DNA of 64,000 nt, taken from contig JAPLDL010000016.1 of NCBI GenBank assembly GCA_026391735.1, forward strand, positions 865-64,864, written 5' to 3'. This DNA comes from Bacteroidota bacterium. GTDB lineage: Bacteria; Bacteroidota; Bacteroidia; Bacteroidales; FEN-979. A model generated the notes under the pieces. That model ran no database searches and was not told the origin of the DNA. It was given only the letters and a program-made list of their open reading frames with translations. Shown one piece after another: positions 32,882 to 58,552 of this stretch (position 1 is the first letter of the stretch; every line of letters starts with the position of its first letter). A program made the translations under genes and the position numbers.

Positions 32882-33304
32882 TTACTTGAAACTGATCGTC
32901 CCTTTTGTCGCACCCGGAGGAAGCTTTAACAGGATGAATTTCTGCCAATGGTTATAACTGTTTTTATCTGCTGTCTCCTGCTTGTCTGCCCACTTTATAG
33001 TAAACTTTGTATCGTCGTTTACGACCAGGTTCTTTGTCCCTTCAAATTTCTCTTCCGTAATGGTCGTCATGGCCCAGTACCCGATTGTGTCCCGGGAGGA
33101 GATCTTATCAAAGACCAGGCGCTCCCCGCCCTGGCCTATGGTAAACCAGCCTGTTGTCATCCAGTATCCCCCATCAGAAACATAACGGCACATGGCAACA
33201 TAGATCTGGGCATTATGGTTGTTTTTAAAAGTGATCTGCGGATGTCCCTCTGCCAGGATGAACAGGAAGGAACACAGGATAAGCATTCTGAACATTGGCT
33301 TCAT
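32882..33304 (-). CDS. hypothetical secreted protein (possibly DUF1036-like)
   Basis: 140 aa with a signal peptide. The weak YVAMCRY...GGYWMTTGWFTIGQG pattern is reminiscent of DUF1036. Its start overlaps the upstream gene by 4 nt. Confidence 0.5.
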   Translation of the reverse strand: MKPMFRMLILCSFLFILAEGHPQITFKNNHNAQIYVAMCRYVSDGGYWMTTGWFTIGQGGERLVFDKISSRDTIGYWAMTTITEEKFEGTKNLVVNDDTKFTIKWADKQETADKNSYNHWQKFILLKLPPGATKGTISFK

Positions 33305-33873: not shown

Positions 33874-34033
33874 TGCGATGAAATTGAATCTGTAACACGA
33901 CCCGACACCAAATTTACAAACAAAATATAAAATCAGTGAAAGTTGTTTTACTTTTGCAATAAAATTGAAACTTAAGTGATTTACATTGAGTAAAAGAAGC
34001 TGAAGTAACTGACTTACAATAAAACTTTGAATC

Positions 34034-45206: not shown

Positions 45207-45221
45207 AATTTAAAATCCGGG

Positions 45222-45229
45222 CAAAGGTA
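45222..45229 (-). promoter_or_regulatory. -7 promoter box (TACCTTTG on minus strand) for the helicase gene
   Basis: The reverse complement of caaaggta lies 16 nt upstream of the start at 45206. Confidence 0.45.
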
Positions 45230-45278
45230 AAAGAATAGGACTTTGACCCGGGGTTTGTGAAAAACTATTTAATACAAT

Positions 45279-45398
45279 TCACTTACCAATTCCCTGTCGA
45301 CATTTACCCCTGTTTTATTCACACTTACCAATAGTAACCCTAACACAGTTACTTAGATACTGGTTACGCTTACCTGAATTTTGTTTACACTTACCAAT
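45279..45398 (+). promoter_or_regulatory. array of six ~21-bp-phased direct repeats (ACAYTTACC-type 9-mers): putative activator binding sites
   Basis: Copies start at 45279 TCACTTACC, 45300 ACATTTACC, 45321 ACACTTACC, 45345 ACAGTTACT, 45366 ACGCTTACC and 45387 ACACTTACC. Spacings are 21, 21, 24, 21 and 21 nt. Confidence 0.7.
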
Positions 45399-45427
45399 TC
45401 TTGCTTTACTTAAGGTTTTGACTGCCA

Positions 45428-45435
45428 TATTTTTG
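45428..45435 (+). promoter_or_regulatory. -7 promoter box (TATTTTTG) for the first island transcription unit
   Basis: TAnnTTTG match 36 nt upstream of the ATG at 45471 and exactly 40 nt downstream of the C of the proximal repeat (45388). Confidence 0.55.
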
Positions 45436-45470
45436 CAAACAGTGTAAAATGTTCTTAAACCATTTTTACT

Positions 45471-45851
45471 ATGAAATCAAACATATATAAGTTAGGGTGT
45501 ACATTATTAATAATATCATTTATAGTGTTCAGCTGCAGGAAAGATATCAATGAAGTTACTCCTGACCAGGGCTCCGGGAAAGTTAAATCGATGAGCGACA
45601 TAAAAGCTTCCTCCGACTTTAATTGGAAGACAACTCAGAATGTGGAACTGGAGCTCAGCGTACCTGCAAAATCTTCCCTGGTAATTAAATCTTCTTCCGG
45701 AGTGATTTTTCAAAAAGCATTACTTACACCCGGTGAATCTTATAAAACGGCAATTACAATCCCTAACTATATGCAGGATCTTACATTCGTTGTAAACGGT
45801 GTGTCAACAGTCCTGAAAATTGAGAATAACAGGGTTGTCTATTCTTTTTAA
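45471..45851 (+). CDS. small lipoprotein homologous to the N-terminal domain of the LruC-domain proteins
   Basis: Lipobox (IVFSC). The mature part aligns by eye with the N-terminal ~110 aa of the 51408 and 53799 products (C-x-KD, M.D...S.FNW..TQ.V.L, ending YSF/YTF/YVF). Confidence 0.65.
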   Translation: MKSNIYKLGCTLLIISFIVFSCRKDINEVTPDQGSGKVKSMSDIKASSDFNWKTTQNVELELSVPAKSSLVIKSSSGVIFQKALLTPGESYKTAITIPNYMQDLTFVVNGVSTVLKIENNRVVYSF

Positions 45852-45862
45852 ACAGCATAATA

Positions 45863-47899
45863 ATGAAAACAATAAATATTCCCCTGATAAACAAGTTTGC
45901 AGCTCTGCTTTTTGCGTCAATGTTGCTGCCGTTGTTAAGCATTGCAGATCAAAAATCAATCTGTGATATCTATAAAAGCAATGGAGGAGGATATTCCACC
46001 ACGATAACATCGGTTGTCTGCAATCAATCGGATCATTCCCATACCATTACCCTTCGTGTTGAGCATAATGGATGTGACGGGGCCAGTTGCCCTGCAATTA
46101 CCAGGTTTTGCGTTCAGGCTGCAGCCGGTACTTATTCGAATGTGGTCGTTAGTATACTGTATGGCGGAGTGACATTTACAGGGATTAACAATGGCCCGGT
46201 TTTGCCTGGCGACCCATGGAATGGATTCAGGATTGAAGGAATTACCGGCATTGGCAACGGTCATGCAGGAGTTTTTACAGTTTCCTACAAACTAACCGGC
46301 GCATTGCAGGACCAGCAGGTCTCGGCCAGGGCCGGAGCTCTTCTTCAGCTGGCATCATTTACAGCAGCTGATTTCCAGAGTGTCATGAACTGTTACAGCA
46401 CCGATTGCTCAGGTGGCGGACTAACTGGTCCTACAGCTAATAATGACAATGCGACCACCCCTCAGAACACCCCAATAACTTTAAATGTCCTGGCAAATGA
46501 TGTTGCAGGATCAGGCGCTCTCGTTCCCTCAACAGTTAGTTTTATCCCCGGAACAGCACCAAACCCGGGAACAGTTGGAACATTTACCGTAAATGGGGTA
46601 ACCGGAGCCGTTACATTTACCCCGGTAGCTGCTTATACAGGACTGGCTTCAATCCAGTATACAGTTTGCGATATGAACAGTTTATGCAGCACAGCAACTA
46701 TTACTATAAATATCACTGCTTCTCTTATTCCCCCGACAGCAATAAACGACAATGCAACAACAACCCTGAATACACCGGTAACCATTACTATTCTTACGAA
46801 TGATATTGCCGGTTCAGGAGCTTTAGTCCCTTCTTCAGTTACATTCGTCCCCGGCACTTCTCCACCGGTTTCCAAAGGAGTGTTTACCAAAAATAATCTT
46901 GGGATTGTAACCTTCACACCGGCAACCGGATACACAGGCCTTGCGACCATTCAATACACGGTGTGTGATGTAAACTCACTTTGCAGTTCTGCAACAATAA
47001 CAGTGACCATAAACGGTGGAGGAAATGACTCAGATGGCGACGGTTGTCCCGACGATGTGGACGATTATCCGAATGATCCTACCCGATGCTTTGATAACTA
47101 TTTCCCGGCTGCCGGTAATGGAACATTGGCTTATGAAGATCTCTGGCCTTCCAAGGGGGACTATGATTTCAATGATGTTATTCTTGATTACCGGTTTAAA
47201 ACCGTGACCAATTCTTCAAATAAAGTTGTTGAAATTTTTGCAACCTTTGTCCTGAAAGCCTCAGGCGCCGAGTTTCATAACGGCTTCGGGTTCCAGTTGC
47301 CAACCATTAACGTGGATCCCTCAACAATGACCGTGACAGGCTCTCATTTATCTCATTCTGTTGTCAATATTAACGCGAATGGCCTGGAAAGCGGACAAAC
47401 CAAACCAACCATTATTGTATTTGACGACTTTTTTGACCTGATGCCGAACCCTTCATGCGGCATTGGTGTGAATACATCCCCTGGATGTCCCTATGTGGCA
47501 CCGGTCACTATCTCGTTACATATTACTTTCAGCAGTCCGCTGTATCTGATGACTCAAACAAACGTTGAAAACTTCAACCCCTTCATCTTTGTCGGGCTTG
47601 ACAGGGGGCACGAGGTCCATTTGCCCGACTACCTTCCGACGAACCTTGCAAACCCTGCTTTTTTTGGCACTTATGATGACCAAACAAGCATTTCGGGAAA
47701 TAAATATTATAAAACCGTAAACAACCTTCCATGGGCTATTAACCTGATTGAAAGTTTTGCTTATCCGAAGGAAATGGTCGATATCATTAACTCGTATAAC
47801 CACTTCGTTGACTGGGTAACAAGCGGAGGCCTTTTATACCAGGACTGGTATATGGATAAACCAGGGTACCGCAATGCAACGAATATATATGTTCATTAG
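45863..47899 (+). CDS. LruC (DUF4842) domain-containing secreted protein with two cadherin/Ig-like ~100-aa repeats
   Basis: Type I signal peptide. Two repeats of NDNATT..NTP(I/V)T..(L/I)..ND(V/I)AGSGALVPS...FTP..GYTGLA(S/T)IQYTVCD.NSLCS.ATIT, then a Ca-binding-like DSDGDGCPDDVDDYPNDP motif. The LruC signature follows: LAYEDLWPSKGDYDFNDV ... FNPFIFV ... HEVHLPDY ... YYKTVNNLPWAINL. Confidence 0.85.
   Translation: MKTINIPLINKFAALLFASMLLPLLSIADQKSICDIYKSNGGGYSTTITSVVCNQSDHSHTITLRVEHNGCDGASCPAITRFCVQAAAGTYSNVVVSILYGGVTFTGINNGPVLPGDPWNGFRIEGITGIGNGHAGVFTVSYKLTGALQDQQVSARAGALLQLASFTAADFQSVMNCYSTDCSGGGLTGPTANNDNATTPQNTPITLNVLANDVAGSGALVPSTVSFIPGTAPNPGTVGTFTVNGVTGAVTFTPVAAYTGLASIQYTVCDMNSLCSTATITINITASLIPPTAINDNATTTLNTPVTITILTNDIAGSGALVPSSVTFVPGTSPPVSKGVFTKNNLGIVTFTPATGYTGLATIQYTVCDVNSLCSSATITVTINGGGNDSDGDGCPDDVDDYPNDPTRCFDNYFPAAGNGTLAYEDLWPSKGDYDFNDVILDYRFKTVTNSSNKVVEIFATFVLKASGAEFHNGFGFQLPTINVDPSTMTVTGSHLSHSVVNINANGLESGQTKPTIIVFDDFFDLMPNPSCGIGVNTSPGCPYVAPVTISLHITFSSPLYLMTQTNVENFNPFIFVGLDRGHEVHLPDYLPTNLANPAFFGTYDDQTSISGNKYYKTVNNLPWAINLIESFAYPKEMVDIINSYNHFVDWVTSGGLLYQDWYMDKPGYRNATNIYVH
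46430..47017 (+). repeat. two tandem ~100-aa Ig/cadherin-like coding repeats
   Basis: Repeat 1 starts at PTANNDNATT (46430) and repeat 2 at PPTAINDNATT (46730). The two are similar along their whole length. Confidence 0.8.
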
Positions 47900-47960
47900 A
47901 ATTTATCAGATATTTCATATACGATAAAAAATTAACAACCAATCAAAAACAACAGGCAAA

Positions 47961-49439
47961 ATGAAAAAAATCGCATTCATGTTAACAGGGCTTGGCTTAA
48001 TACTTGCATTTGCAGGTTGCAACAAGTTCAGAAATACCGAACCAGCCAGCCAGCAGTCAGCACAAGGCGTCAGCTTTGCTATTGCTCCAGGCCAGACCGG
48101 TGGGTTGAAATCAACGGCCAGCACCGATTGCTTCACTCAGACCGCCAATTACGCAAAAATCACCATTGACAGCAAACACTATATCAGGGCGATATTTTAC
48201 GTGGGTGGAATTCCGTACACAAACACTCTGCAACTGGGAACCGGCTTGCATACTCTGCAGGAATTTACCATATGGAGTGATAACCAGACCCCAAATGATT
48301 CTACCGATGATGCAATGCTTTCGGCAGTGCCTCACACAGGTTCGAATTATTCACCTTATGTTTCTTCGCCTCTGGATATTACATTTACAGTTGAAGCCTT
48401 TAAAAAGACCCAGCTTCCTGTAGAGGCAGTTTGTTATCAGCCAAGCAACTATAGCGATTTTGGTTTTACATTCTTCCAGATAGAACAGGTCACTGTTCGC
48501 GAACAACCGTTTTTCGGAGACCTCTGTATTAAAAGTATAGCTGATTATTCTATTACAGGTTCACCTTATCTTGCACAATCCAATGGTATACAGCTTGACC
48601 TTCCCGCAATCTTCAAAATTGAAGTATACAGGAACAATGTGTTGATGAATGTATTCAACAATGAAGCCTGGAACGGTGAAGGCCAGCCTCTGAAGGTTTT
48701 ATATGCCGACAGGCAGAATGTTACTGACAATTTCGAATTCAAACTCTATGTGAAAGTCAGGAAAGGTCCCGGTTTTGACTATGTTTATTTCAAGAGTTGG
48801 ACTTTTAGCGATGCTCAGGTGATCCCACAGAACAGCGACGGTGTTTGCGACTTTTCGATCGGATACTGCAACCCCAATGCCGACTATGTTCTTCCTCCAT
48901 GGATCAACCTGCCCAGTACAGCGACTTATACCATCACAGGCGGTTATGCTCCGGGTTCACAGGGAGGATATGTTGACGCAAACCTCACAAATGTTCTTTC
49001 GGGATATGAAATTGTAAACGGGACTTTTGCTTCCTGGTGCTGCGACCACCAGACCACAATTAATACGGGAACGGCTTATAATATGAACGTTTATTCCTCT
49101 CTTTATCCTGCTCTGCTTCCTGCTTTTGCGCAGACTATTCCCTGGGATAAGATCAACTGGCTGTTGAACCACCTTGACTGGTACCCCGGTTATCATTGGT
49201 ATGATCTGCAGGGGGCTATCTGGTTGTTTGACAATCCTGCATGGGATGGTACAGCACATAGCGGGGTACCCAATCTTACCACGGTTATGACCCAGATGCA
49301 TGCAGATGCCAATACTTACGGAGCTAATTTCAAGGTTCCGACCGGCGGATGGGCTTCGGTAGTCTTTATTCCCGTAGGAACACCACCCAATGCACCAACA
49401 CCTACCGTTCAGACCATGTTTATTAAACTTGATCCCTGA
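47961..49439 (+). CDS. lipoprotein of unrecognised family, paralog 1, with candidate thioester-domain-like C-terminal region
   Basis: Lipobox LAFAGC, 492 aa. About 85-90% identical by eye to the 49699 product. C-terminal third contains WCCDH (C360/C361) and DLQGAIW (Q417). No TAnnTTTG box upstream, so it is probably co-transcribed with 45863..47899. Confidence 0.85.
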   Translation: MKKIAFMLTGLGLILAFAGCNKFRNTEPASQQSAQGVSFAIAPGQTGGLKSTASTDCFTQTANYAKITIDSKHYIRAIFYVGGIPYTNTLQLGTGLHTLQEFTIWSDNQTPNDSTDDAMLSAVPHTGSNYSPYVSSPLDITFTVEAFKKTQLPVEAVCYQPSNYSDFGFTFFQIEQVTVREQPFFGDLCIKSIADYSITGSPYLAQSNGIQLDLPAIFKIEVYRNNVLMNVFNNEAWNGEGQPLKVLYADRQNVTDNFEFKLYVKVRKGPGFDYVYFKSWTFSDAQVIPQNSDGVCDFSIGYCNPNADYVLPPWINLPSTATYTITGGYAPGSQGGYVDANLTNVLSGYEIVNGTFASWCCDHQTTINTGTAYNMNVYSSLYPALLPAFAQTIPWDKINWLLNHLDWYPGYHWYDLQGAIWLFDNPAWDGTAHSGVPNLTTVMTQMHADANTYGANFKVPTGGWASVVFIPVGTPPNAPTPTVQTMFIKLDP

Positions 49440-49475
49440 AAAATTTTATCAGAATAACTTGATTTTCTGATTAAT

Positions 49476-49510
49476 AGAGGCTATTCCGAAAGGATGGCCT
49501 CTTTTTTGTT
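49476..49510 (+). terminator. rho-independent terminator after paralog 1
   Basis: agaggctattcc-gaaa-ggatggcctct imperfect hairpin followed by tttttgtttt. Confidence 0.6.
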
Positions 49511-49514
49511 TTCC

Positions 49515-49568
49515 ACATTTATGGATTATTTAGCCACACTTACCAAGAAACAATCATCACTTACTTGT
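49515..49568 (+). promoter_or_regulatory. three 21-bp-phased repeats of the island motif
   Basis: 49515 ACATTTATG, 49536 ACACTTACC and 49557 TCACTTACT, spaced 21 and 21 nt. Confidence 0.65.
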
Positions 49569-49597
49569 TATCGCTTTCCCCGGTTATCCAGTCGGCT

Positions 49598-49605
49598 TAT
49601 ATTTG
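49598..49605 (+). promoter_or_regulatory. -7 promoter box (TATATTTG) for paralog 2
   Basis: TAnnTTTG match, 40 nt downstream of the proximal repeat C (49558). Confidence 0.55.
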
Positions 49606-49698
49606 CCTGATTGATTATAAATTAGAAACAGAGGCACTGAAATATTTTGAAATATTAACCAAAAGGAAAATTATTAATTAATCAAAAAATCAAGTAAA

Positions 49699-51177
49699 AT
49701 GAAAAAGCTAACATTAATTTTTACAGTTCTTGGTTTAATACTTGCCATTGCAAGTTGTAACAAGATCAAGAATGATGCCCCCACGGCCCAGCAGGCTTCT
49801 CAGGGCGTGAGTTTCTCTATTGCTCCCGGACAAACCGGAGGGCTTAAATCTTCAGCCAGTACCGACTGTTTCCAAACAACGGCAAACTACGCAAAGATCA
49901 CTATTGACGGCAAACATTACGTAAGAGGTATTTTTTACGTTGATGGCAAACCGTATACGAATACCCTTCAGTTGGGGACAGGCGTCCACACATTGCAGGA
50001 ATTTGCCATTTGGAGCGATCACCAGACTCCCAATGATTCAACCGATGATTTAATGCTTTCGGCTGTACCTCATACCGGATCAAATTTTGCACCCTATGTT
50101 GCATCACCATTGGATATTACTTTCAACGTGGATGCCTTTAAAAAGACCCAGGTTCCGGTTGAAGCTGTTTGCTATCAGCCAAGCAATTATACCGATTTCG
50201 GTTTTACATTTTTCCAGATCGAAGAAGTGACACTCCGCGAGCAGCCTTTCTTCGGTGACCTTTGTATTAAAAGCATTGCCGATTATTCAATCCAGGGCTC
50301 GCCTTATCTTGCACAGTCCAACGGGATTCAGCTTGATCTTCCTGCAATCTTTAAGATTGAAGTATACAGGAACAATGTTCTTATGAATGTATTCAACAAT
50401 GAAGCATGGAACGGTGAAGGACAACCATTAAAAGTATTGTATGCCGACCGTAAGGGAATTACCGACAATTTCGAACTTAAACTCTATGTTAAAGTCAGGA
50501 AAGGCCCTGGATTTGATTATGTATACTTCAAGAGCTGGACTTTCAGCGACGCCCAGTTGATCCCTCAGAACGCCGATGGAGTTTGTGACTTCTCAATTGG
50601 ATATTGTAACCCCAATGCCGACTATGTTATGCCCCCGTGGATCAATTTACCTTCTACTTGCACATACACTATTACAGGTGGTTATGCCCCAGGTTCACAG
50701 GGTGGGTATGTGGATGCAAATCTCACCAGCGTATCAACCGGGTATGAAATTGCCAACGGGTTGTTTGCTTCATGGTGTTGTGACCATCAGACCACGATCA
50801 ATGTTGGCCAGCCATATAATATGAATGTATATTCATCCTTGTATCCCGACCAGCTTCCTGCATTTGCACAAACCAGGCCATGGGATAAGTACAACTGGCT
50901 TCTGAACCATCTTGACTGGTATCCCGGATATCATTGGTACGATCTCCAGGGAGCATTATGGCTGATGGAATCTCCTGCATGGAACGGTGTAAGTGAAGGG
51001 GGAGTTCCCAATGTTAATGCCATGATGACACAAATGAAAAATGATGCCATTGCATACGGCAGCGGGTATAAAGTTCCTACCGGCGGATGGGCAGCAGTTG
51101 TCTTCATTCCTGTTGGAACCCCAGGTAATGCAGCAAACCCGACCATCCAGACAATGTTCATTAAACTTGACCCTTGA
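49699..51177 (+). CDS. lipoprotein of unrecognised family, paralog 2, with candidate thioester-domain-like C-terminal region
   Basis: Lipobox LAIASC, 492 aa, colinear with paralog 1. WCCDH and DLQGALW are conserved at identical positions. Confidence 0.85.
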   Translation: MKKLTLIFTVLGLILAIASCNKIKNDAPTAQQASQGVSFSIAPGQTGGLKSSASTDCFQTTANYAKITIDGKHYVRGIFYVDGKPYTNTLQLGTGVHTLQEFAIWSDHQTPNDSTDDLMLSAVPHTGSNFAPYVASPLDITFNVDAFKKTQVPVEAVCYQPSNYTDFGFTFFQIEEVTLREQPFFGDLCIKSIADYSIQGSPYLAQSNGIQLDLPAIFKIEVYRNNVLMNVFNNEAWNGEGQPLKVLYADRKGITDNFELKLYVKVRKGPGFDYVYFKSWTFSDAQLIPQNADGVCDFSIGYCNPNADYVMPPWINLPSTCTYTITGGYAPGSQGGYVDANLTSVSTGYEIANGLFASWCCDHQTTINVGQPYNMNVYSSLYPDQLPAFAQTRPWDKYNWLLNHLDWYPGYHWYDLQGALWLMESPAWNGVSEGGVPNVNAMMTQMKNDAIAYGSGYKVPTGGWAAVVFIPVGTPGNAANPTIQTMFIKLDP

Positions 51178-51210
51178 TAACAATTTGAGTTCCGGATCAT
51201 TATAAATAGA

Positions 51211-51248
51211 AACAAGACACCGGTGTAAATGCCGGTGTCTTGTTTTAT
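51211..51248 (+). terminator. rho-independent terminator after paralog 2
   Basis: aacaagacaccgg-tgtaaatg-ccggtgtcttgtt perfect stem followed by a T-run. Confidence 0.8.
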
Positions 51249-51262
51249 CTTTACACCAGGGT

Positions 51263-51316
51263 ACATTTTATCCCCAAAAATGGACATTTACAAAATTAAC
51301 CAACACGCTTACTTAT
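51263..51316 (+). promoter_or_regulatory. three 21-bp-phased repeats of the island motif
   Basis: 51263 ACATTTTAT, 51284 ACATTTACA and 51305 ACGCTTACT, spaced 21 and 21 nt. Confidence 0.6.
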
Positions 51317-51345
51317 TATCAATTGACATGGCAGGTGCCTGTAAT

Positions 51346-51353
51346 TAATTTTG
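51346..51353 (+). promoter_or_regulatory. -7 promoter box (TAATTTTG) for the second LruC-domain gene
   Basis: TAnnTTTG match, 40 nt downstream of the proximal repeat (51306). Confidence 0.55.
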
Positions 51354-51407
51354 TGAAGTTAAACTGAAATTTAAGATTAAACTGCGAATACAAAAAAACC
51401 AAAAGCC

Positions 51408-53552
51408 ATGAAAACAAAAGTTTTATTATTATTTGTTTTGGCATCGTCCGTAATATTTATATCAGGATGTCATAAGGACTATTCGACTACGCCGAAAGCC
51501 AAAACAATGGATGATCTCCAGATCTCCCAATCCTTTAACTGGGAAATGACCCAGGAAGTCACATTGAATATCGGGATGGACATTCCCGCTGTGACATTCC
51601 AGTATAATAAAGTAAATGTATACCTAGCTGATCCGACAAAAGGCGGGGAACTGGTTTACCAGGGATGGACAGGAAATTCCAATCCGATGCTTGCGAAGGT
51701 CAGGATCCCGACAGGTGTTTCACAACTTTGGCTTCAGTTGATTCCATACAGCGGTGTTGGTCAGATTGCCAGCGTTCCTGTGAATGCCTCAATTTCTTAT
51801 ACGTTTGCAGGTGCAACCAAAATGAAAAGTGCTAATGTGCTCGGACCAGATTGTTCTGCAGCCACTGCACCCTACACTCTCATCGGAAGCGCAAATTTTA
51901 CAATTGATGATGGCCATACTTATTATATCATTGCCTCATATACCGGAGACATCACAGTTAAAGACGGCACCTTGCAAATCTGCGGAACTTATACAACCGG
52001 GACTATCGATCTTAAACCAAACAATGGAAAGACTTCCACACTTAAGGTAAGTTCCACAGGTACCATTGGAACAGTTTCTGCACCTGTTACGATTAAGGAA
52101 AGCAAAGACGGGTTGTTCCAGAATTGGGGTTCCTGCCATATTGCCGGTGTTTTTACACCCAATGACGAGGTGGAGAATTACAACCTCATGACTGTTTATG
52201 GCCAGATGAATATGAATGGAAGCTCAGGCAACTTCATCAATGGTGGCGGAGCCTATATGCATATCGAAGATAAATGGAACGTGATCAACCAGGCAACAAA
52301 CCTGGGTACTATTGAAGTTGAAGGAGACATGGAATGCAACCATTCGATTTTCCTGAACAGCTGTGCACTGATAGTTCATGGGAATTTCCATCTCAATAAC
52401 TGTGAATTTACAAACCAGACCGGTTACCTGAAATGTTTTGAAGAAGCTTATATGCAGGGCGGAACCGGATTTATGAAATTATACAACGGTTCAATGATCT
52501 CCACGAAGGATCTCAGGGTCAATGCTGATGTGACAGGTTATGGAACCCGTAATGAAATAAAGGTGACCGATATGTTGCGTTTCGATGGACCCAAAGTTAT
52601 CACAGGCCCTATTGAAACAGCTCAGACCAATGGAGTAATGACTTCAGGCGACATGACAAACTTTACAGGTGGTGCAACCTTTGTAAGTTTTGCCAACATA
52701 CTCAATACCATTCCCACGAGCGAATGTAATCCCGAGGGTGTGAATCCTCCGCCGGCCCCTGTCGGAAACGTATTCACAGGTACTGCTGTATATGAAGATC
52801 TCTGGCCTGAGAAAGGTGACTATGATCTGAACGACCTCGTGATGTATTATAAGTTCACATTAACCACAAATGTCCAGAATAAAGTAACGGACATTCAGAT
52901 AAAGCTTTATGTAAAAGCTGCAGGCGCTTCATTCCAGAACGGATTTGGAATCCAGTTTGATAACCTGGTTCCGGGCGATATCGCCTCGGTTACAGGCTAT
53001 AATCTGAAGTACAATTACATCACTCTTAGCGCAAACGGAACGGAATCGGGCCAGGCTAAAGCCGTTATCATTCCTTTCGACAATACCGATAACGTGATCC
53101 ACAGAGTAACCCCTGTCTTCTTCAATACCGTGATGGGAGCTCCTGTTGGAACAGCCGATACCGTTACCTTAAGTATCCATCTTACAACTCCTATGCTGAC
53201 AACGGCTCTTGGTACACCACCTTACAACCCATTCCTTATCAGAAATATGGAAAGGGTTGCTGAGATCCACCTCCCGAATTACGTGCCTACAACACTGGCA
53301 CAAAACTGTCCTTATTTTGGCACTGGTGATGATAATACTCAACCCGGAATCGGAAGATATTATAAAACAACCAACAATCTGCCCTGGGCACTGAATATCC
53401 CGGTCAATTTTGATTACCCCTGGGAAAAGGTAAGTGTTCTTAGCGCATACAATTATTTTGCAACCTGGGCAGAATCGGGCGGTACGCTTTACACCGACTG
53501 GTATAAAAATCTGGCAGGTTACAGGAATTCGGCCAATATCTGGCATCCGTAA
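51408..53552 (+). CDS. LruC (DUF4842) domain-containing lipoprotein with beta-helix-like middle region
   Basis: Lipobox FISGC and an N-terminal domain shared with 45471 and 53799. The middle ~300 aa are repetitive and G/N/T-rich (beta-helix-like). C-terminal LruC signature: AVYEDLWPEKGDYDLNDLV ... YNPFLI ... AEIHLPNY ... YYKTTNNLPWALNIP. Confidence 0.85.
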   Translation: MKTKVLLLFVLASSVIFISGCHKDYSTTPKAKTMDDLQISQSFNWEMTQEVTLNIGMDIPAVTFQYNKVNVYLADPTKGGELVYQGWTGNSNPMLAKVRIPTGVSQLWLQLIPYSGVGQIASVPVNASISYTFAGATKMKSANVLGPDCSAATAPYTLIGSANFTIDDGHTYYIIASYTGDITVKDGTLQICGTYTTGTIDLKPNNGKTSTLKVSSTGTIGTVSAPVTIKESKDGLFQNWGSCHIAGVFTPNDEVENYNLMTVYGQMNMNGSSGNFINGGGAYMHIEDKWNVINQATNLGTIEVEGDMECNHSIFLNSCALIVHGNFHLNNCEFTNQTGYLKCFEEAYMQGGTGFMKLYNGSMISTKDLRVNADVTGYGTRNEIKVTDMLRFDGPKVITGPIETAQTNGVMTSGDMTNFTGGATFVSFANILNTIPTSECNPEGVNPPPAPVGNVFTGTAVYEDLWPEKGDYDLNDLVMYYKFTLTTNVQNKVTDIQIKLYVKAAGASFQNGFGIQFDNLVPGDIASVTGYNLKYNYITLSANGTESGQAKAVIIPFDNTDNVIHRVTPVFFNTVMGAPVGTADTVTLSIHLTTPMLTTALGTPPYNPFLIRNMERVAEIHLPNYVPTTLAQNCPYFGTGDDNTQPGIGRYYKTTNNLPWALNIPVNFDYPWEKVSVLSAYNYFATWAESGGTLYTDWYKNLAGYRNSANIWHP

Positions 53553-53585
53553 TCCTAAACAATCTTAATTTCAGCTTTTGGTTAA

Positions 53586-53617
53586 GACGGCTCTCTTCGG
53601 AGGGCCGTCTTTTTTTT
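53586..53617 (+). terminator. rho-independent terminator
   Basis: gacggctctc-ttcg-gagggccgtc followed by T8. Confidence 0.85.
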
Positions 53618-53639
53618 ATAGCTAATTTCCTGTGTTTAG

Positions 53640-53693
53640 ACACATACTAAATAATACGTGACAGATACATGGGTAAGTAGTACACATACGTAA
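53640..53693 (+). promoter_or_regulatory. three 21-bp-phased repeats (ACASATAC variant of the island motif)
   Basis: 53640 ACACATACT, 53661 ACAGATACA and 53682 ACACATACG, spaced 21 and 21 nt. Confidence 0.6.
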
Positions 53694-53722
53694 AGTAGCT
53701 TTTTGTTTGGTAATACAGGCCC

Positions 53723-53730
53723 TAATTTTG
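53723..53730 (+). promoter_or_regulatory. -7 promoter box (TAATTTTG) for the third LruC-domain gene
   Basis: TAnnTTTG match, 40 nt downstream of the proximal repeat (53683). TTTG elements lie at 53702-53709. Confidence 0.55.
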
Positions 53731-53798
53731 CAATTAATTATTATTCAGTAGATAATTATAAGCTAATTAGTCAAAATAACAAAATTAAAATACCATAC

Positions 53799-56783
53799 AT
53801 GAAACGTATTCCAGTTATCTTCATAGTCATTCTGAGTCTTTTTTTCTCACTCAGCAGCTGTAAAAAAGATCTTACTTCCAGGGACACTTCATCATCCAAT
53901 CCGACGAAGTTTACTGATCTTAAAACCGATCCGTCATTCACTTTTGAGAACTTCACAACAATAAACGCAAATATCAGTGTGAATACCTCTCAGGGCACAA
54001 CCATGAACATTATCCAGGTATACCAGGATGATCCCGGTTATGGCAAGCTCATTGCAACAGGCGTTTCTTACGGAAGTCAGCCATATAGTAATACTCTCCG
54101 CATTCCAAAGGCAGTTAAAACCCTTTACATCGCCTATGCCTCTTCTGACGGCAAACACGAGTCGGCTACTATAAGTATTAACGGGACTGACGTCGTTTAT
54201 GTGTTCGGAAAGACCAAATCAGGAGAGAATGCAGAAAACAGCTGCGGAACCGGAACTGCGATCACAACAAACCAGAGCAGCGTAACGGTGGGCTCAGGTC
54301 AAACTTATTATGTACCTTTCGGTTCAACCGTTACTATTTCTAATTTAACTGTCAGTACCGGAGGAACATTCAATAATTGCGGTACTGTAACAGTGAATGG
54401 ATTAAATGTAAGCTCTTCCAACGGAACAATCAATAATAACGGGACATTCACAATTACAGAGGATGTTGATTTTAAAGGCATATTAGTCAATAATGCCACT
54501 CTTAATGTCACCGGGAATCATGAATATAAAACTAATTCGGGTGGAAGTGTGATCAACAATTGCACCATGTATGTTACCGGGGATGTGTTTACCACTGGCA
54601 GCGGTAGTTTTACTAATAACGGATATCTTAAAATTACAGGAAACGAAGGAAGTATTAAAACAACAGGTGGTGGGATTCTTACTTTAGGCCCCCAAAGTTT
54701 GCTTGATACTCCGTATTTTGACCTTGAAGGTTCATGCAACGGGCCAGGGACCGCTTCTTATGCAGGCATCAAGACCCATGACGGAAAAACCACAGGGGGC
54801 GCAGGCATCTCAGGTTATGTGGACTTCTGTGCAAGCGGAACGATCCACCCTGATGGGGCAACTTATGGCCCACATGTGACATTCTGCACTCATTCAGTAA
54901 GCATTCCCAGTTGCTCAAACCCAATTGCCCCTGTTATTACCAGTGCACTTACCGCCGCTGGAACCGCAGGCCAGGCAATCACACCTTACGTGATTACAGC
55001 CACTGGAACCGAGCCCATTACATACACTGCAACAAATTTGCCTTCGGGTTTGACATACAATAGCAGTACTCATACTATCTCGGGAACACCGGCTGCTGCA
55101 GGTTCATTTAATATTACTCTGAAGGCGGATAACGCTGTAGGTACTGATACGAAGACCCTTGTGTTAACAGTTGGCGCTCCCGGCAATCCTCCTGCTATAA
55201 CCAGTCCAATGACTGCAGCAGGAACAGCCGCTCAGCCTTTCAGCTATACGATTACTGCTACGGGAACCAATACCCAGGCTTGTCCGCTGACTTTCAGTGC
55301 AAACAACCTGCCAGCAGGACTTACTTTGCAGGGTGGAAACATCATTGGAGGATCCCCTTCAGCCGCAGGAACATATGATATCACTATGACTGCGACCAAC
55401 TGTAACGGTACTGACACCAAACACCTGATCCTGACTGTCGGAGCTGCAGGAGTTGCCCCTGTCATTACGAGCCCGTTAACCGCCAGTGGCACTGCAGGAC
55501 AGGTATTTACACCTTATACGATGACATCAACAGGTACTACCCCTGTGACCTTAAATGCCACTAATTTGCCTGCCGGACTTTCATATGATAATTCAACTCA
55601 CCAGATAACCGGGAATCCAACAACACCTGGGACTACCAGTGTTATATTAACTGCATCGAATTTTTACGGAACTGATGTAAAAACACTTGTTATCACTATT
55701 GCCCAGGGAGCAGGAACACCTCCTGCCATCCAGCCCCCGCTCACTGCCACAGGTACAGTGGGATCCCCGTTCACACCGTATTTAGTGTCAGCCACCGGAA
55801 CATCTCCGATAACATTTTCTGCAACACAGCTACCCGATGGATTGTCATTTGATCCTATCTCGCACACAATAACAGGCACACCTACCTCTGCCGGTACATT
55901 TAATGTCCCTCTTACTGCGACGAACAATGTCGGAGTCGATAATAAAACCCTTGTGATAACAATAACCCAGGGCGGAGGTGGTTCGTTTTACTCGTACTAT
56001 CCGAACTCAGTGGATTACGGCACCTTCGTATTTGAAGACCTCTGGCCCTATTACGGAGATTATGACTGTAACGACCTTGTTGTGAACTTCCAATATAAAA
56101 TAACTTCCAATGAACAGAACCAGATCACTGATATCCAGGCAACCTTTATCTTTAAAGCTGCAGGAGCTACATTCAATAACGGTTTCGGGATTGTTTTAAA
56201 TACAAATCCGTCAAACATAGCTAGTGTTACCGGTTGTACTCAATATGGAAGCGCGGTCAGTTATGATCCAAAAGGATTTGAAGCTGGTCATTCCAATATG
56301 ACGGTTATTGTCCCGGTTGATGCCGTTAACACCATGTTTGGCAGGGGATTGGTCAATACAATAATTGGAAATGGATATATTCAGCCAGTCACAAAGGTTA
56401 TTAATATACATTTTGCAACTCCTCAGGCTAGTGTGGGCTCACTGCCATGGAATCCATTTATTTTCCAGGACCAGGTTCGCAGCCATGAGATCCACATGAA
56501 GAATAAAGCCAATACCGACTTTGCTGATATGAGTTTATTCAATACAGGCAATGATGGTTCCAATTCCGGACAGGGTGTTTATTATGCCTCACCAACCGGA
56601 CTGCCCTGGGCATTTGAGATCCCTGTTAATTTTGATTATCCGGTTGAAAAAACAGATATTCTCAACTGCTATAATCATTTTGCCGAATGGGCTACATCAC
56701 CGCAGGGACCTTCTAACCCTTATAATGACTGGTATATGGACAGCCCGGGATACAGGAATACAGCAAATCTCTGGCATCCGTAA
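53799..56783 (+). CDS. LruC (DUF4842) domain-containing lipoprotein with beta-helix-like region and four He_PIG-type Ig repeats
   Basis: ATG at 53799 gives MKRIPVIFIVILSLFFSLSSC (lipobox). The N-terminal domain and beta-helix-like region resemble 51408. Four ~88-aa repeats follow (P(A/P)(V/A)ITS.LTA.GTAGQ.F.PY...ATG..P(I/V)T..A.NLP.GL....T..I.G.P...G......L.A.N..G.D.K.L.(L/I)T(V/I)). C-terminal LruC signature: FVFEDLWPYYGDYDCNDLV ... WNPFIF ... HEIHMKN ... LPWAFEIP. Confidence 0.85.
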   Translation: MKRIPVIFIVILSLFFSLSSCKKDLTSRDTSSSNPTKFTDLKTDPSFTFENFTTINANISVNTSQGTTMNIIQVYQDDPGYGKLIATGVSYGSQPYSNTLRIPKAVKTLYIAYASSDGKHESATISINGTDVVYVFGKTKSGENAENSCGTGTAITTNQSSVTVGSGQTYYVPFGSTVTISNLTVSTGGTFNNCGTVTVNGLNVSSSNGTINNNGTFTITEDVDFKGILVNNATLNVTGNHEYKTNSGGSVINNCTMYVTGDVFTTGSGSFTNNGYLKITGNEGSIKTTGGGILTLGPQSLLDTPYFDLEGSCNGPGTASYAGIKTHDGKTTGGAGISGYVDFCASGTIHPDGATYGPHVTFCTHSVSIPSCSNPIAPVITSALTAAGTAGQAITPYVITATGTEPITYTATNLPSGLTYNSSTHTISGTPAAAGSFNITLKADNAVGTDTKTLVLTVGAPGNPPAITSPMTAAGTAAQPFSYTITATGTNTQACPLTFSANNLPAGLTLQGGNIIGGSPSAAGTYDITMTATNCNGTDTKHLILTVGAAGVAPVITSPLTASGTAGQVFTPYTMTSTGTTPVTLNATNLPAGLSYDNSTHQITGNPTTPGTTSVILTASNFYGTDVKTLVITIAQGAGTPPAIQPPLTATGTVGSPFTPYLVSATGTSPITFSATQLPDGLSFDPISHTITGTPTSAGTFNVPLTATNNVGVDNKTLVITITQGGGGSFYSYYPNSVDYGTFVFEDLWPYYGDYDCNDLVVNFQYKITSNEQNQITDIQATFIFKAAGATFNNGFGIVLNTNPSNIASVTGCTQYGSAVSYDPKGFEAGHSNMTVIVPVDAVNTMFGRGLVNTIIGNGYIQPVTKVINIHFATPQASVGSLPWNPFIFQDQVRSHEIHMKNKANTDFADMSLFNTGNDGSNSGQGVYYASPTGLPWAFEIPVNFDYPVEKTDILNCYNHFAEWATSPQGPSNPYNDWYMDSPGYRNTANLWHP
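54927..55970 (+). repeat. four tandem ~88-aa putative-Ig (He_PIG/dystroglycan-type) coding repeats
   Basis: Repeat starts read at 54927 (APVITS), 55188 (PPAITS), 55455 (APVITS) and 55719 (PPAIQP). Confidence 0.8.
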
Positions 56784-56817
56784 TCCTAAACAATTTTAAT
56801 TTCAGCTTTTGGTTAAA

Positions 56818-56847
56818 ACGGCTCTCCTCGGAGGGCCGTCTTTTTTT
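56818..56847 (+). terminator. rho-independent terminator (near-identical copy of 53586-53617)
   Basis: acggctctc-ctcg-gagggccgt followed by T7. Confidence 0.85.
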
Positions 56848-56904
56848 GCAGGATGGCAGTTTATCCGTAATTTTACATTGGTTTTAATTTCTTATCGGCA
56901 TTAC

Positions 56905-57645
56905 ATGAAAATCACATTTTTCCAGGTCCTTAATTATTCGCTGATCTTTTTTGCCATGATCCTTTTTATAAGGTATTTATGGGATATAATCTTTAACCCA
57001 GATTACGAGCCTGCAGCCTGGAAAGAAGCTAAGAAGGAAGGTAGGCTGACGGGTCTGCGGAAGGTTGAAAAACAATACAAGGATAAAGTCAGGTTTTTCA
57101 ATTTCTGGTTCCAGGTCGAACGGCTTAGAAAGGAACAGGTCGCCGGAGCTATGGCCGAACTGGGAGTATACCAGGGTGAAAGTGCCAGGATTTTACACTA
57201 TCTTGACCCTGCACGGAAGCTCTATCTTTTTGATACCTTCGAAGGGTTTAAAAACCAGGATCTTGCGATAGAAAAAGGAGTAGCGGCAACATACACCAGC
57301 AACAATTTTGCCGACACCAGTATTAATAAGGTACTCAGATTTATCGGCGGAAACGGGAACATATCGGTGCAACAAGGGTATTTTCCGGCCTCTGCCTTAA
57401 AACTGGTTCATGAGAAGTTTGCCCTGGTTAATATAGATGTTGACTTATACAACCCAACCAAAGCCGGTCTTGAATTTTTCTACCCGCGCCTTTGTCCGGG
57501 AGGAATCATCCTGGTACATGACTATAATTTTAAATGGGAGGGGGTGATCAGGGCTGTTGATGAGTTTTGCAAAACCATACCCGAATCCATGGTTATTATC
57601 CCTGACAGAGAAACTACCGTGATGATCATCCGCAGAAAATTCTGA
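56905..57645 (+). CDS. TylF/MycF-like class I SAM-dependent methyltransferase with N-terminal TM helix
   Basis: ATG at 56905; the track start at 56809 would read through the upstream terminator. Hydrophobic N-terminus (NYSLIFFAMILFIRYLW), then ELGVYQGESA, LFDTFEGF and VDVDLYNPTKAGLEFFYPRLCPGGIILVHDY, typical of the macrocin-O-methyltransferase family. Confidence 0.8.
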   Translation: MKITFFQVLNYSLIFFAMILFIRYLWDIIFNPDYEPAAWKEAKKEGRLTGLRKVEKQYKDKVRFFNFWFQVERLRKEQVAGAMAELGVYQGESARILHYLDPARKLYLFDTFEGFKNQDLAIEKGVAATYTSNNFADTSINKVLRFIGGNGNISVQQGYFPASALKLVHEKFALVNIDVDLYNPTKAGLEFFYPRLCPGGIILVHDYNFKWEGVIRAVDEFCKTIPESMVIIPDRETTVMIIRRKF

Positions 57646-57809
57646 TAGCTGGATAGCTGGATAGCTTGAAAGTTGGATAGCTTGATAACTGGATAGCTGG
57701 ATAACTGGATAGCTGGATAGCTTGATAACTGGATAGCTGGATAGCTTGATAACTGGATAGCTGGATAACTTGATATCTGATTATCCAGTTATCCCGCTAT
57801 CCAGTTATC
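57646..57809. repeat. ~16 tandem 8-nt units (CTGGATAG / CTGGATAA / CTTGATAA) followed by an inverted partial copy
   Basis: Direct reading from tagctggatagctggatag... to ...ctggataacttgatatctga, then ttatccagttatcccgctatccagttatc (57781-57809), which can pair with the preceding units. Confidence 0.95.
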
Positions 57810-57932
57810 TTCGTGAAGCGAAATCCGCAATCAATCATCATTGATTATCAGGATAAAGAGGGACTTTCTGATTTTTTTTCATCCGGTTTGTAAAAAAAAC
57901 ATTAAATCTCTTGTTTGAAAGAAAATAAATTG

Positions 57933-57940
57933 TAATTTTG
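57933..57940 (+). promoter_or_regulatory. -7 promoter box (TAATTTTG) for the str operon, implying a ~220-nt leader
   Basis: TAnnTTTG match with TTTG at 57914-57917. rpsL starts at 58169. Confidence 0.45.
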
Positions 57941-58168
57941 CACCCTCGAAAATCAGATTTGGTTTTTGAGGGGATACTAAGCCGAAATTAGTAAGGAAAC
58001 CTGACAAAGCGAGACATCTATAGGTTTCAAAAGCAGCCGGAACGTCGGTTGCAGTGAAAAAGTCTCTCTGAACAACAGCTCTCCTTTTATATTTCAAAGC
58101 CAATATCCTTCTTTACACAGCGCAGGTTTTAGCGCTAAAACGTTTGAAAAGAATTTAAACATTTCAAT

Positions 58169-58552
58169 ATGCCTACAATTTCGCAATTGGTTCGTAAAGG
58201 AAGACACAAACTGACAGATAAGAGCAAAGCTCCTGCCCTTGATGGATGTCCCCAGCGCCGCGGTGTTTGCGTGAGGGTTTATACGACCACTCCCAAAAAG
58301 CCCAATTCAGCAATGCGTAAAGTTGCACGTGTTCGTCTGACCAACGGGAAGGAAGTGAATGCTTACATCCCGGGTGAAGGCCATAATCTCCAGGAACACT
58401 CGATCGTGATGATCCGCGGAGGCCGTGTCAAGGATCTTCCCGGCGTTCGTTACCATATTATCCGTGGTGCCCTCGATACATCAGGTGTTGAAGGTCGCAA
58501 GCAGCGCCGTTCCAAATATGGCGCCAAGAAGCCTAAAGAAAAGAAAGCATAA
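58169..58552 (+). CDS. rpsL: 30S ribosomal protein S12
   Basis: [12 protein letters not shown]...[10 protein letters not shown], the canonical S12 sequence. Confidence 0.98.

Follow-up and report, generated by a model that had tools for sequence, protein, structure and literature searches.

Phased direct repeats at four Bacteroidales lipoprotein-gene promoters as predicted binding sites for a LytTR-family activator

Characterised LytTR promoters mostly contain two binding sites rather than three to six. At algD of Pseudomonas aeruginosa, the LytTR regulator AlgR acts through three sites. Sites of the HdrR/BrsR type have the arrangement ACCACTTAC-12 bp-ACCACTTAC and show a strong bias to a position 10 bp upstream of the -35 element (PMC6193735). 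In sites of the AgrA type, imperfect 9-bp direct repeats stand 12–13 bp apart just 5' of the -35 element; the dimers that bind the AgrA, ComE, BlpR and PlnC/D boxes are of the Response_reg+LytTR kind and activate several promoters per regulon (PMC5600425). For the Bacteroidota systems that combine a Reg_prop/Y_Y_Y/His_kinase protein with a LytTR regulator, no description of the operators was found in the searchable literature.

Four promoters of a gene island in the window, namely the whole 64-kb stretch of DNA that was analysed, carry repeats of a similar kind (Table 1). The island belongs to an uncultured freshwater Bacteroidales bacterium and consists of surface-lipoprotein genes. The promoters were predicted from the -7/-33 consensus of Bacteroidetes sigma-ABfr (PMC7366714). 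The TylF methyltransferase gene past the island probably lies outside unit 4 because a terminator precedes it.

Table 1. Gene units, terminators, repeat arrays and predicted promoter cores of the island
Feature	Coordinates	Strand	Description
Promoter 1 operator (predicted)	45279..45395	+	six 9-bp direct repeats; starts 45279, 45300, 45321, 45345, 45366, 45387
Promoter 1 core (predicted)	45405..45435	+	-33-like TTTA 45405-45408; -7 box TATTTTTG 45428-45435
Unit 1 operon	45471..49439	+	3 genes
Unit 1 gene 1	45471-45851	+	126-aa lipoprotein
Unit 1 gene 2	45863-47899	+	LruC-domain protein, 678 aa
Unit 1 gene 3	47961-49439	+	492-aa lipoprotein, without Pfam family
Terminator closing unit 1	49476..49502	+	intrinsic
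Promoter 2 operator (predicted)	49515..49565	+	49515 ACATTTATG (weak), 49536 ACACTTACC, 49557 TCACTTACT
Promoter 2 core (predicted)	49575..49605	+	-33-like TTTC 49575; -7 box TATATTTG 49598-49605
Unit 2	49699..51177	+	492-aa lipoprotein
Terminator closing unit 2	51210..51245	.	hairpin
Promoter 3 operator (predicted)	51263..51313	+	51263 ACATTTTAT (weak), 51284 ACATTTACA, 51305 ACGCTTACT
Promoter 3 core (predicted)	51323..51353	+	-33-like TTGACA 51323; -7 box TAATTTTG 51346-51353
Unit 3	51408..53552	+	LruC-domain lipoprotein, 714 aa
Terminator closing unit 3	53584..53611	+	intrinsic
Promoter 4 operator (predicted)	53640..53690	+	53640 ACACATACT, 53661 ACAGATACA, 53682 ACACATACG
Promoter 4 core (predicted)	53700..53730	+	-33-like TTTTTG 53700-53705; -7 box TAATTTTG 53723-53730
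Unit 4	53799..56783	+	LruC-domain lipoprotein, 994 aa, with He_PIG and PKD repeats
Terminator 3' of unit 4	56818-56839		

The earlier note had claimed that a 9-bp repeat recurs in phase at these promoters, with the C of its proximal copy always 40 nt from the T of a TAnnTTTG box. All positions of the 9-mers and of the boxes (45428, 49598, 51346 and 53723) are correct, the 21-nt spacing holds for every copy at promoters 2 to 4, and the 40-nt distance is exact at all four promoters. At promoter 1, the spacing is 21 nt except for a 24-nt step between copies 3 and 4, and the TTTA element starts 10 nt past the repeat core. The repeats of promoter 4 have a variant core, with A instead of T at position 5. 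The description of the module as a set of three copies stands only for the two strong proximal copies, whereas the distal copy is weak at promoters 2 and 3 (per-site empirical P values of 0.005 and 0.013, respectively); the conserved unit of the module is the two proximal copies.

When a PWM trained on the six promoter 1 copies only was used to score triplets at 21+21 nt on both strands of the window, the top three non-training matches were the three claimed sites (29.6, 21.0 and 18.7), and the next-best real match scored 8.7. The maximum score in 200 Markov shuffles averaged 8.6, with a 95th percentile of 14.4 and a highest value of 19.6. No other phased pair was found anywhere in the window, in agreement with the claim that its housekeeping promoters lack the repeats. 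Because TAnnTTTG occurs at only 4.7e-4 per position, four boxes at exactly +40 are not due to chance. Alignment of the four promoters gave a pairwise identity of 0.70 for the repeats and 0.85 for the box versus 0.25 for the spacers (random expectation, 0.253). These results confirm that the phased-repeat observation is real and far beyond chance.

Phylogenetic footprinting, which had been proposed as a check, has shown that the repeat cores are kept and the spacers drift in related MAGs: the orthologous promoters of four such MAGs have 81% invariant columns in the repeat core and 29–33% in the spacers. The offset to the box is fixed at 40 nt within the island but is 40 or 41 nt in the relatives. 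The 3+3 layout of promoter 1, including its 24-nt step, is kept in L001 and L003, whereas L002 has the proximal three copies only. The proximal two copies of promoter 2 are kept in L001–L003, and the distal copy in L001 and L003 is CCGGATACC, a variant of the promoter 4 type. In L004, the orthologue of promoter 3 reads TCATTTAAT / TCATATACT / ACACTTACC, and its box is again at +40. In the relatives L005–L007, the module is located at an unlinked locus, 5' of a paralogue of the 492-aa protein, and one promoter there contains both core variants, ACATTTACT and ACAGATACG, which argues that the same factor reads both. The footprint and the module at this unlinked paralogous gene support the proposal that a single factor controls the whole island as a regulon. 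Occurrence of the motif at LruC genes of other genomes, a search for which had also been proposed, extends to these MAGs and to some other lineages, in which a DNA-only scan identified operons of g126-like and LruC genes under the module (L031/L102, L120/L127 and L086/L129). At the second LruC gene in L129, the sequence is CGTTTAC-N14-CAATTAC-N33-TACCTTTG, outside the reach of the search pattern. However, no clear module was seen at the more distant LruC loci L008, L009, L132 and L133, indicating that the link between LruC and the module is lineage-limited.

The module is also associated with LytTR genes. In a reverse test, metagenome contigs were scanned for the exact pattern CRYTTAC-N14-CRYTTAC-N33-TANNTTTG, yielding 112 distinct matches (74 intergenic ones and 38 coding or tandem-repeat controls). 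A LytTR response-regulator gene was present in the fetched stretch for 16 of the 74 intergenic matches but for none of the 38 controls, and all 23 LytTR ORFs lay on the motif strand. The 3' end of the regulator gene was 9–250 nt 5' of the motif at 11 of the 37 loci with a same-strand upstream neighbour; the motif headed a LiaF-like/His_kinase/LytTR operon at five loci and a LytTR-only gene at one. The domains in these regulator loci were confirmed by Pfam. LytTR was the only recurrent regulator type among the upstream neighbours, as judged by eye from the neighbour list, the Pfam scan having covered LytTR neighbours only. At positions unconstrained by the search, the intergenic matches favoured A at position +9 (0.80), T at position +11 (0.73) and TT(G) across +17 to +19 (0.69, 0.62 and 0.38), and this preference was absent from the control matches. 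A third copy was found at exactly -21 in 13 of 73 matches, versus 0–3 at neighbouring offsets. In a forward test, five loci were chosen solely for a protein homologous to one such regulator, and CACTTAC-N14-CACTTAC pairs with up to 2 mismatches were searched for on both strands over about 10.7 kb. The sole pair was located directly 3' of the regulator gene in three of the five loci, each time with a -7-like box at 39–40 nt, against a chance expectation of about 0.07 pairs per locus.

The repeats are quite likely to be binding sites for one LytTR-family DNA-binding protein that activates the island promoters. The sequences directly show the repeats, how they are arranged and conserved, and that the module lies near LytTR genes in other Bacteroidota; LytTR binding, a positive rather than a negative effect on transcription, the start sites and any signal for the island are inferred. 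Only the family of the factor can be named because no regulator gene lies within the window: these 64 kb, and the sequence up to 10 kb from the island in the related MAGs, contain neither a LytTR gene nor any other recognisable transcription factor, and the LruC loci examined elsewhere have no linked LytTR gene. Most likely, the factor is a phosphorylated Response_reg+LytTR response regulator that would be encoded elsewhere in the genome and have a PF06580-type (LytS-like) histidine kinase as its partner. It would recognise a 9-bp site with the core C-R-N-W-T-A-C, typically CACTTAC, and the 21-bp period, equal to two helical turns, would align the bound proteins along the same side of the helix. 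About 10 bp separate the end of the proximal site from a weak -33-like element (TTn), itself about 19 nt 5' of the -7 box (TAnnTTTG) for the primary sigma factor of Bacteroidetes, and this layout accounts for the invariant 40 nt. A dimer on the two proximal sites may recruit or stabilise RNA polymerase at a -33 element presumably too weak alone. The extra in-phase copies (a third at promoters 2 to 4, six in all at promoter 1) may provide cooperative occupancy and promoter-specific thresholds, and the output would be co-induction of four terminator-separated units encoding LruC-domain (DUF4842) lipoproteins and partner lipoproteins.

It is unlikely that the shared factor belongs to another family, be it an AraC/XylS-type activator, an OmpR/PhoB-type winged-helix regulator or an undescribed DNA-binding protein. 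AraC-family sites, too, typically have a 21-bp direct-repeat period beside the -35 region, and AraC/XylS half-sites recur at that same interval; three- to six-copy arrays are unusual at LytTR promoters, and no linked LytTR gene was seen at any LruC locus examined. However, the conserved block is only 9–11 bp long and the 12-bp spacers are at random identity (0.25) and drift between orthologues, fitting neither the 17–18-bp half-sites of AraC nor the 10–11-bp period of OmpR/PhoB. Furthermore, the CACTTAC core, the 12-bp spacer and the 10-bp promoter gap all fit published LytTR sites, the module adjoins LytTR genes in the reverse and forward tests, and by inspection of the neighbour list LytTR is the only kind of regulator seen repeatedly upstream.

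Repression or a role in DNA architecture by a LytTR-type or other factor, for example as a roadblock against upstream read-through, seems very improbable. The arrays of promoters 2, 3 and 4 do begin 10–30 nt past the terminators at 49476-49502, 51210-51245 and 53584-53611, respectively, but promoter 1 has no preceding terminator on its own (+) strand because its upstream neighbour, a helicase gene, is divergently oriented. Moreover, the sites lie wholly 5' of the -33 element at a fixed helical phase, without overlap with the predicted -33/-7 elements or start site, and the -33 elements are weak (TTn, not TTTG), as activator-dependent promoters would have. The same layout heads autoregulated LiaF-like/kinase/LytTR operons, whose published LytTR analogues are positive-feedback activators (PMC6193735). 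That the shared geometry is a functionless relic of promoter duplication with paralogous genes, or a chance resemblance, is scarcely credible: the island genes are paralogous (the 492-aa pair shares 83% identity, and three of the products are LruC proteins) and a 100-nt duplication flanks the promoter 4 cassette on both sides, but with random identity outside the repeats and box, only the sites could still reflect a common origin, these positions are kept in four related MAGs with changed spacers, the shuffle statistics exclude chance, and the geometry is found again in unrelated lineages.

LytTR-dependent activation of the island would make its LruC lipoprotein cassettes a new regulon of the LytTR type, under an already known kind of control, and the module may provide a usable promoter grammar for Bacteroidota. 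The HdrR/BrsR sites of Streptococcus mutans and homologues are similar in having two 9-bp direct repeats in the same orientation with a 12-bp separation, a CACTTAC core (ACCACTTAC there and (N)ACACTTAC in the island) and a repeat end about 10 bp 5' of the -35 element, equivalent to the TT(G/T) element of the island, at promoters that are activator-dependent, as those of the island may also be. However, HdrR and BrsR are LytTR-only regulators held by a membrane inhibitor and autoregulate their own operon, whereas the island has no linked regulator gene, has three to six phased copies instead of two, uses promoters of the Bacteroidetes -33/-7 type and targets LruC lipoprotein genes. The AgrA P2/P3, ComE, BlpR and PlnC/D boxes of Firmicutes quorum sensing share 9-bp direct repeats with 12–13-bp spacers just 5' of the -35 element, but the island repeats agree only in part with the AgrA-type consensus [TA][AC][CA]GTTN[AG][TG] (ACACTTACC fits at about 6 of 9 positions; the closest island copy is ACAGTTACT at 45345), and those loci serve peptide quorum sensing and have the genes for kinase and regulator linked. 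AlgR at algD likewise has more than two 9-bp LytTR sites per promoter, but these are scattered over hundreds of bp in mixed orientation, in contrast to the strict 21-bp phased array beside the island promoters. In the Bacteroidota Reg_prop/Y_Y_Y/His_kinase (PF06580) kinase and LytTR regulator systems of the metagenome loci L022, L110, L130 and L136–L140, CACTTAC-N14-CACTTAC lies directly 3' of the regulator gene and 39–40 nt from a TAnnTTTG-like box. Their targets are adjacent, for example small ORFs with TonB-dependent-receptor-like proteins or, at L022, a double-glycine-leader peptide, but their core and geometry are equal to those of the island promoters, and a member of this subfamily is a candidate for the island regulator.

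The phased-repeat module that the earlier note had described is present at all four promoters of the LruC lipoprotein gene island (P1–P4). When the four regions were read and the positions extracted, the 9-mers, their 21-nt spacings and the TAnnTTTG boxes were all as claimed, and the C of the proximal copy lies 40 nt from the T of the box at four of four promoters. The three copies assigned to each of P2–P4 all exist at their positions, but two of the distal ones are weak, with an empirical P per site of 0.005 for the copy at 49515 and of 0.013 for that at 51263. In total, 15 repeat copies are found over the four promoters, and their information sits in 8–9 positions, A-C-R-N-W-T-A-C-(Y). The copies are 21 nt apart throughout P2–P4, and in P1 as well except for one 24-nt step. 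A position weight matrix was built from the six P1 copies alone, avoiding circularity, and triplets at 21 + 21 nt were scored at all positions on both strands. The P2–P4 sites are the top three non-training matches in the window, with scores of 29.6, 21.0 and 18.7, and the next best match scores 8.7. Over 200 Markov shuffles, the window-wide maximum was 8.6 on average, had its 95th percentile at 14.4 and never exceeded 19.6. TAnnTTTG by itself occurs 60 times over the two strands of the window (4.7e-4 per position). Consistent with the claim that the housekeeping promoters lack the module, a pair scan of the window gives no further phased copies.

Units of the LruC lipoprotein gene island and their control elements (window coordinates; operators on the plus strand)
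Promoter	Operator	Proximal C	T of TAnnTTTG box	Unit	Products	Terminator hairpin after unit
P1	45279–45395	45388	45428	45471–49439	126-aa lipoprotein (g126); LruC/DUF4842 protein of 678 aa (LruC678); 492-aa lipoprotein	49476–49502
P2	49515–49565	49558	49598	49699–51177	492-aa paralogue, 83% identical to the 492-aa protein of the P1 unit	51210–51245
P3	51263–51313	51306	51346	51408–53552	LruC protein of 714 aa (LruC714)	53584–53611
P4	53640–53690	53683	53723	53799–56783	LruC protein of 994 aa (LruC994)	56818–56839

The window is Bacteroidota-like. The island is flanked on one side by a minus-strand gene for a UvrD-type helicase and on the other by rpsL-rpsG-fusA. A signal peptide ending in a lipobox-like Cys is found in five of the six island products, and none is obvious at the N-terminus of LruC678. 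No solved structure was found for the 492-aa protein, and for the LruC domain only one described as a 'putative lipoprotein' (3oqq). The repeat arrays start 10–30 nt past the preceding terminator. With a terminator, an operator array and a promoter of its own, each cassette could be gained or lost while staying in the regulon. A 100-nt direct repeat (53517–53616 and 56748–56847, 92% identical) brackets P4 and the LruC994 gene; its sequence is the 3'-terminal part of the LruC714 gene plus terminator, which recurs where LruC994 ends. Because of this bracketing duplication and because the P4 cassette is absent from all relatives examined, the analysis suggests that the cassette was gained by recombination at a conserved gene end and terminator. 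Downstream, the ORF of a TylF-like methyltransferase (TTG start at 56809) overlaps the strong P4-unit terminator at 56818–56839. The true TylF start is probably near 56902, because the homologues in three relatives (L002, L003, L065) align only from residue 32, and the TylF gene is probably not co-transcribed with the fourth unit. Directly 3' of the TylF gene, ~360 nt 5' of rpsL, an 8-nt tandem repeat (57644–57809) consists of 17 copies of GATAGCTG/GATAACTG at 57644–57779 followed by ~3.6 inverted copies; L001–L003 and L065 lack it at their TylF site. A second array at 20257–20367, 5' of htpG, holds ~14 copies of the complementary unit. An Rfam scan of 44500–58500 found no known RNA above threshold, and its weak miRNA-like matches correspond to the hairpin within the octamer array.

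Related MAGs were collected by a protein-guided scan, with one genome per species. The same locus is found in four freshwater Bacteroidales/Bacteroidota MAGs, with protein identities of 83–91% and the same genes on either side. Across ~200 kb of the relatives' loci, with both strands read, phased pairs are confined to positions 5' of island genes, every pair being followed by TAnnTTTG at +40 or, in four cases, +41. Phylogenetic footprinting, which the earlier note had proposed, bears out the module: in box-anchored ungapped alignments, invariant columns make up 81% of the repeat core versus 29–33% of the spacers. The 3 + 3 arrangement of P1 is kept in L001 and L003 together with its 24-nt step, and the distal three copies are lost in L002. 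At P2, the proximal two copies are conserved, and the distal copy is CCGGATACC in two MAGs, one mismatch from the P4-type core. Only the P1 and P2 units are present in L002, L003 and L065; P3 is degenerate in L001 and has an orthologue in L004. The module also heads an unlinked monocistronic gene of the relatives (L005–L007), whose product has its N-terminal 312 residues in common with the 492-aa proteins and carries a Fib_succ_major domain at its C-terminal end. In the promoter of this gene a T-type core, ACATTTACT, stands beside an A-type core, ACAGATACG, and this side-by-side placement argues that one factor would read both types of core.

The island arrays are imperfect direct repeats of ~9 bp, as in LytTR promoters, and their spacing corresponds to the LytTR spacer of 12–13 bp (period 21–22 bp). 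Direct repeats are also read by other families. Operators of the AraC/XylS type have half-sites of ~17–18 bp, in which two major grooves are contacted, within a 21-bp repeat, and those of the OmpR/PhoB type are direct repeats with a period of 10–11 bp. Both types are disfavoured at the island. Against the former, only 9–11 bp per 21-bp unit are constrained, the other 12 bp being random (identity of 0.25) and variable between orthologues; against the latter, no element recurs at the half period and the spacer columns are unconserved. Among the metagenome matches listed, additional copies stand at −21 and not at other offsets.

The primary sigma factor of Bacteroidetes, sigma-ABfr, reads TAnnTTTG at −7 and TTTG near −33 (PMC7366714). 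By this consensus, the four island boxes are −7 elements, and they lie 35–93 nt 5' of the start codons. The −33 TTTG is only partly matched, by TTTA, TTTC, TTGA and TTTT(TG). These partial matches fit activator-dependent promoters without proving the element, and a reading of the repeats as sites of repression or roadblock is unlikely. That the module is purely a relic of promoter duplication is likewise unlikely: pairwise identity among the four promoters is 0.70 in the repeats, 0.85 in the box and 0.25 in the spacers (random, 0.253), as anticipated by the claim that the module recurs in otherwise dissimilar intergenic sequence. Of the 14 promoters in the window and its relatives, 13 have a TT(G/T/C) element with its first base at +17 relative to the proximal C, which places it 10 nt past the repeat core and ~19 nt before the −7 box at +40. 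With the promoter elements assigned from the consensus, the proximal repeat thus lies ~10 bp 5' of the −35 equivalent in the same orientation, and the 40 nt can be read as 7 + 10 + 4 + 19, the LytTR-to-promoter distance transposed onto a −33/−7 promoter. A sigma-70 scan returned 30 sites against 29.3 expected and is uninformative, as expected in Bacteroidetes.

Association of the module with LytTR genes is seen in a reverse and a forward test and not locally. No transcription factor was found in the window when practically every long ORF was compared with Pfam, and no LytTR gene was found in the window by a six-frame LytTR-profile search or in L001–L010. A 252-aa ORF (33301–34059, minus strand) adjoining a DUF1036-like ORF has no Pfam/NCBIfam match and no LytTR signal. 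In the reverse test, public metagenome contigs were scanned for the bare pattern CRYTTAC-N14-CRYTTAC-N33-TANNTTTG, which yielded at least 120 stretches and at least 112 distinct matches; the matches listed comprise 74 in intergenic DNA, 24 within long ORFs and 14 that are minisatellites of 21-nt units. Minisatellite loci (L075, L096, L103, L117, L122 and L128, for example CGCTTACATTTGCTTCGCTTA) fit the pattern by periodicity alone, and some sit in ORFs for repetitive peptides. A LytTR profile was built from the matches and checked against Pfam (PF04397 with PF00072). Among the matches listed, LytTR ORFs occur in 16 of 74 intergenic loci versus none of 38 control loci, and all 23 of these ORFs are on the motif strand. 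At positions left free by the search, the 74 intergenic matches listed favour A (+9), T (+11) and TT(G) (+17 to +19), and the controls do not; a third copy stands at exactly −21 in 13 of 73 matches listed versus 0–3 at neighbouring offsets.

Two layouts recur among the matches listed. In the first, a kinase–regulator pair is followed by the motif, 9–250 nt past the end of the regulator gene and facing the target gene (11 loci, of 37 with a same-strand upstream neighbour). In the second, found in five loci, the motif heads an operon for a LiaF-like protein, a His_kinase (PF06580) and a LytTR regulator. The motif also heads a 122-aa LytTR-only gene in L130 and faces a double-glycine-leader peptide in L022. 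The operon of LiaF-like membrane protein, PF06580 histidine kinase and LytTR regulator recurs in Bacteroidota (L024, L079, L089, L100, L112; truncated in L027, L058, L060, L063, L080, L094 and L099) and is headed by C(A/G)TTTACCG-N12-C(A/G)TTTACCG, 40 nt from the −7 box. It looks like an autoregulated system of envelope-stress type with a repeat subtype of its own.

In the forward test, loci were picked by protein alone among 7134 homologues (E <= 1e-20) of one CACTTACT-subtype regulator, and all encode a Reg_prop/Y_Y_Y/His_kinase sensor kinase followed by a LytTR regulator. In three of the five loci with DNA, the sole CACTTAC-N14-CACTTAC pair (up to two mismatches, both strands) lies directly 3' of the regulator stop, with a −7-like box 39–40 nt further on; by chance, ~0.07 such pairs are expected per locus. 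One array, in L136, reads CGGATAC-CACTTAC-CACTTAC, and its CGGATAC core is that of the distal P2 copy in L001 and L003.

Outside the lineage, the link between LruC genes and the module is real but not universal. LruC loci sampled by protein (39–68% identity) have at most a variant module and no linked LytTR gene. For four LruC homologues (loci L131–L135), no LytTR gene lies within 10 kb; no clear module is seen in L132 or L133, and a variant pair is all that L134 has. The distant homologue loci L008 and L009 show no convincing module. The DNA-only scan also recovered operons for g126-like and LruC proteins in other organisms (L031/L102, L120/L127 and L086/L129), whose LruC domains share ~50% identity with the window's own. 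A second LruC gene in L129 is preceded by CGTTTAC-N14-CAATTAC-N33-TACCTTTG, which the search pattern could not match. It is one of only two extra matches when 143 spacing combinations were tried over the fetched loci, at 14/33, and this outcome gives the 40-nt preference supportive but thin backing. In L052, a 647-aa lipoprotein gene (9636–11580) lies 3' of a CACTTAC/CATTTAC module, and its product, with a DUF4114-like end by eye (...GGDKDFNDIVV...), may be a further output protein of the same kind; DUF4114 is weakly detected in LruC678 too. A module of the CACTTACTT type stands ~280 nt 5' of htpG in two metagenome loci, L040 and L116, and the htpG region of the window has a single CACTTAC copy only (20213, minus strand). 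In the window, htpG is listed as an ORF of 746 aa with a GTG start (18210–20450, minus strand), which is too long at its 5' end: the conserved N-terminus, MQKGKINVQTE, begins at the ATG at 20110.

We consider it probable that a single LytTR-family activator controls the island, probably a response regulator encoded elsewhere and phosphorylated by a kinase of the PF06580 type. It would bind in-phase sites on one face of the DNA and recruit polymerase where the promoter's −33 element is weak, and extra repeat copies would tune occupancy. A bolder proposal, which we hold only tentatively, is a phylum-wide grammar of LytTR promoters in Bacteroidota (repeat, 12 bp, repeat, 10 bp, TT(G), ~19 bp, TAnnTTTG), with LruC cassettes as a recurrent output and with higher-order assemblies. 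If so, the regulons of PF06580/LytTR two-component systems, which are very numerous and have hardly been studied, would be readable straight from sequence, and LruC lipoprotein cassettes, each with its own operator array, would be gained or lost as a unit. Three to six in-phase copies would then nucleate regulator assemblies on one DNA face, and induction thresholds set per cassette would make a tunable surface-coat programme.

Lipoproteins with the LruC domain (DUF4842) are widespread and have been noted chiefly as a Leptospira antigen, and we know of no function assigned to them. A signal-controlled regulon with a defined operator would offer a route to the inducing condition and the regulator, and thereby to function. 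LytS-like/LytTR two-component systems are many in Bacteroidota genomes, and their targets are, to our knowledge, largely not known. A search of raw metagenome DNA by the fixed geometry picked out LytTR-linked promoters against little noise, so the geometry could serve for regulon prediction on a large scale. LytTR operators are well known. What appears to be new is the target class of LruC-domain lipoprotein cassettes, the multi-copy phased arrays, and the LytTR layout at a fixed register on Bacteroidota −33/−7 promoters. In the searchable literature, outside which most subscription journals lie, no description was found of Bacteroidetes LytTR operators or of these three features. In the literature, the sites of LytTR-domain regulators are characteristically direct repeats of nine bp with spacers of 12 bp, directly 5' of the −35 region. 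The AgrA consensus is [TA][AC][CA]GTTN[AG][TG], with sites 12–13 bp apart (PMC5600425), and the island repeats match it only partly, at ~6–8 of nine positions. The island repeats do resemble a known LytTR consensus, that of operators of the HdrR/BrsR type, ACCACTTAC-12 bp-ACCACTTAC, which are strongly biased to 10 bp 5' of the −35 (PMC6193735): the 7-nt core CACTTAC of the island is identical to the ACCACTTAC core, in the same orientation.
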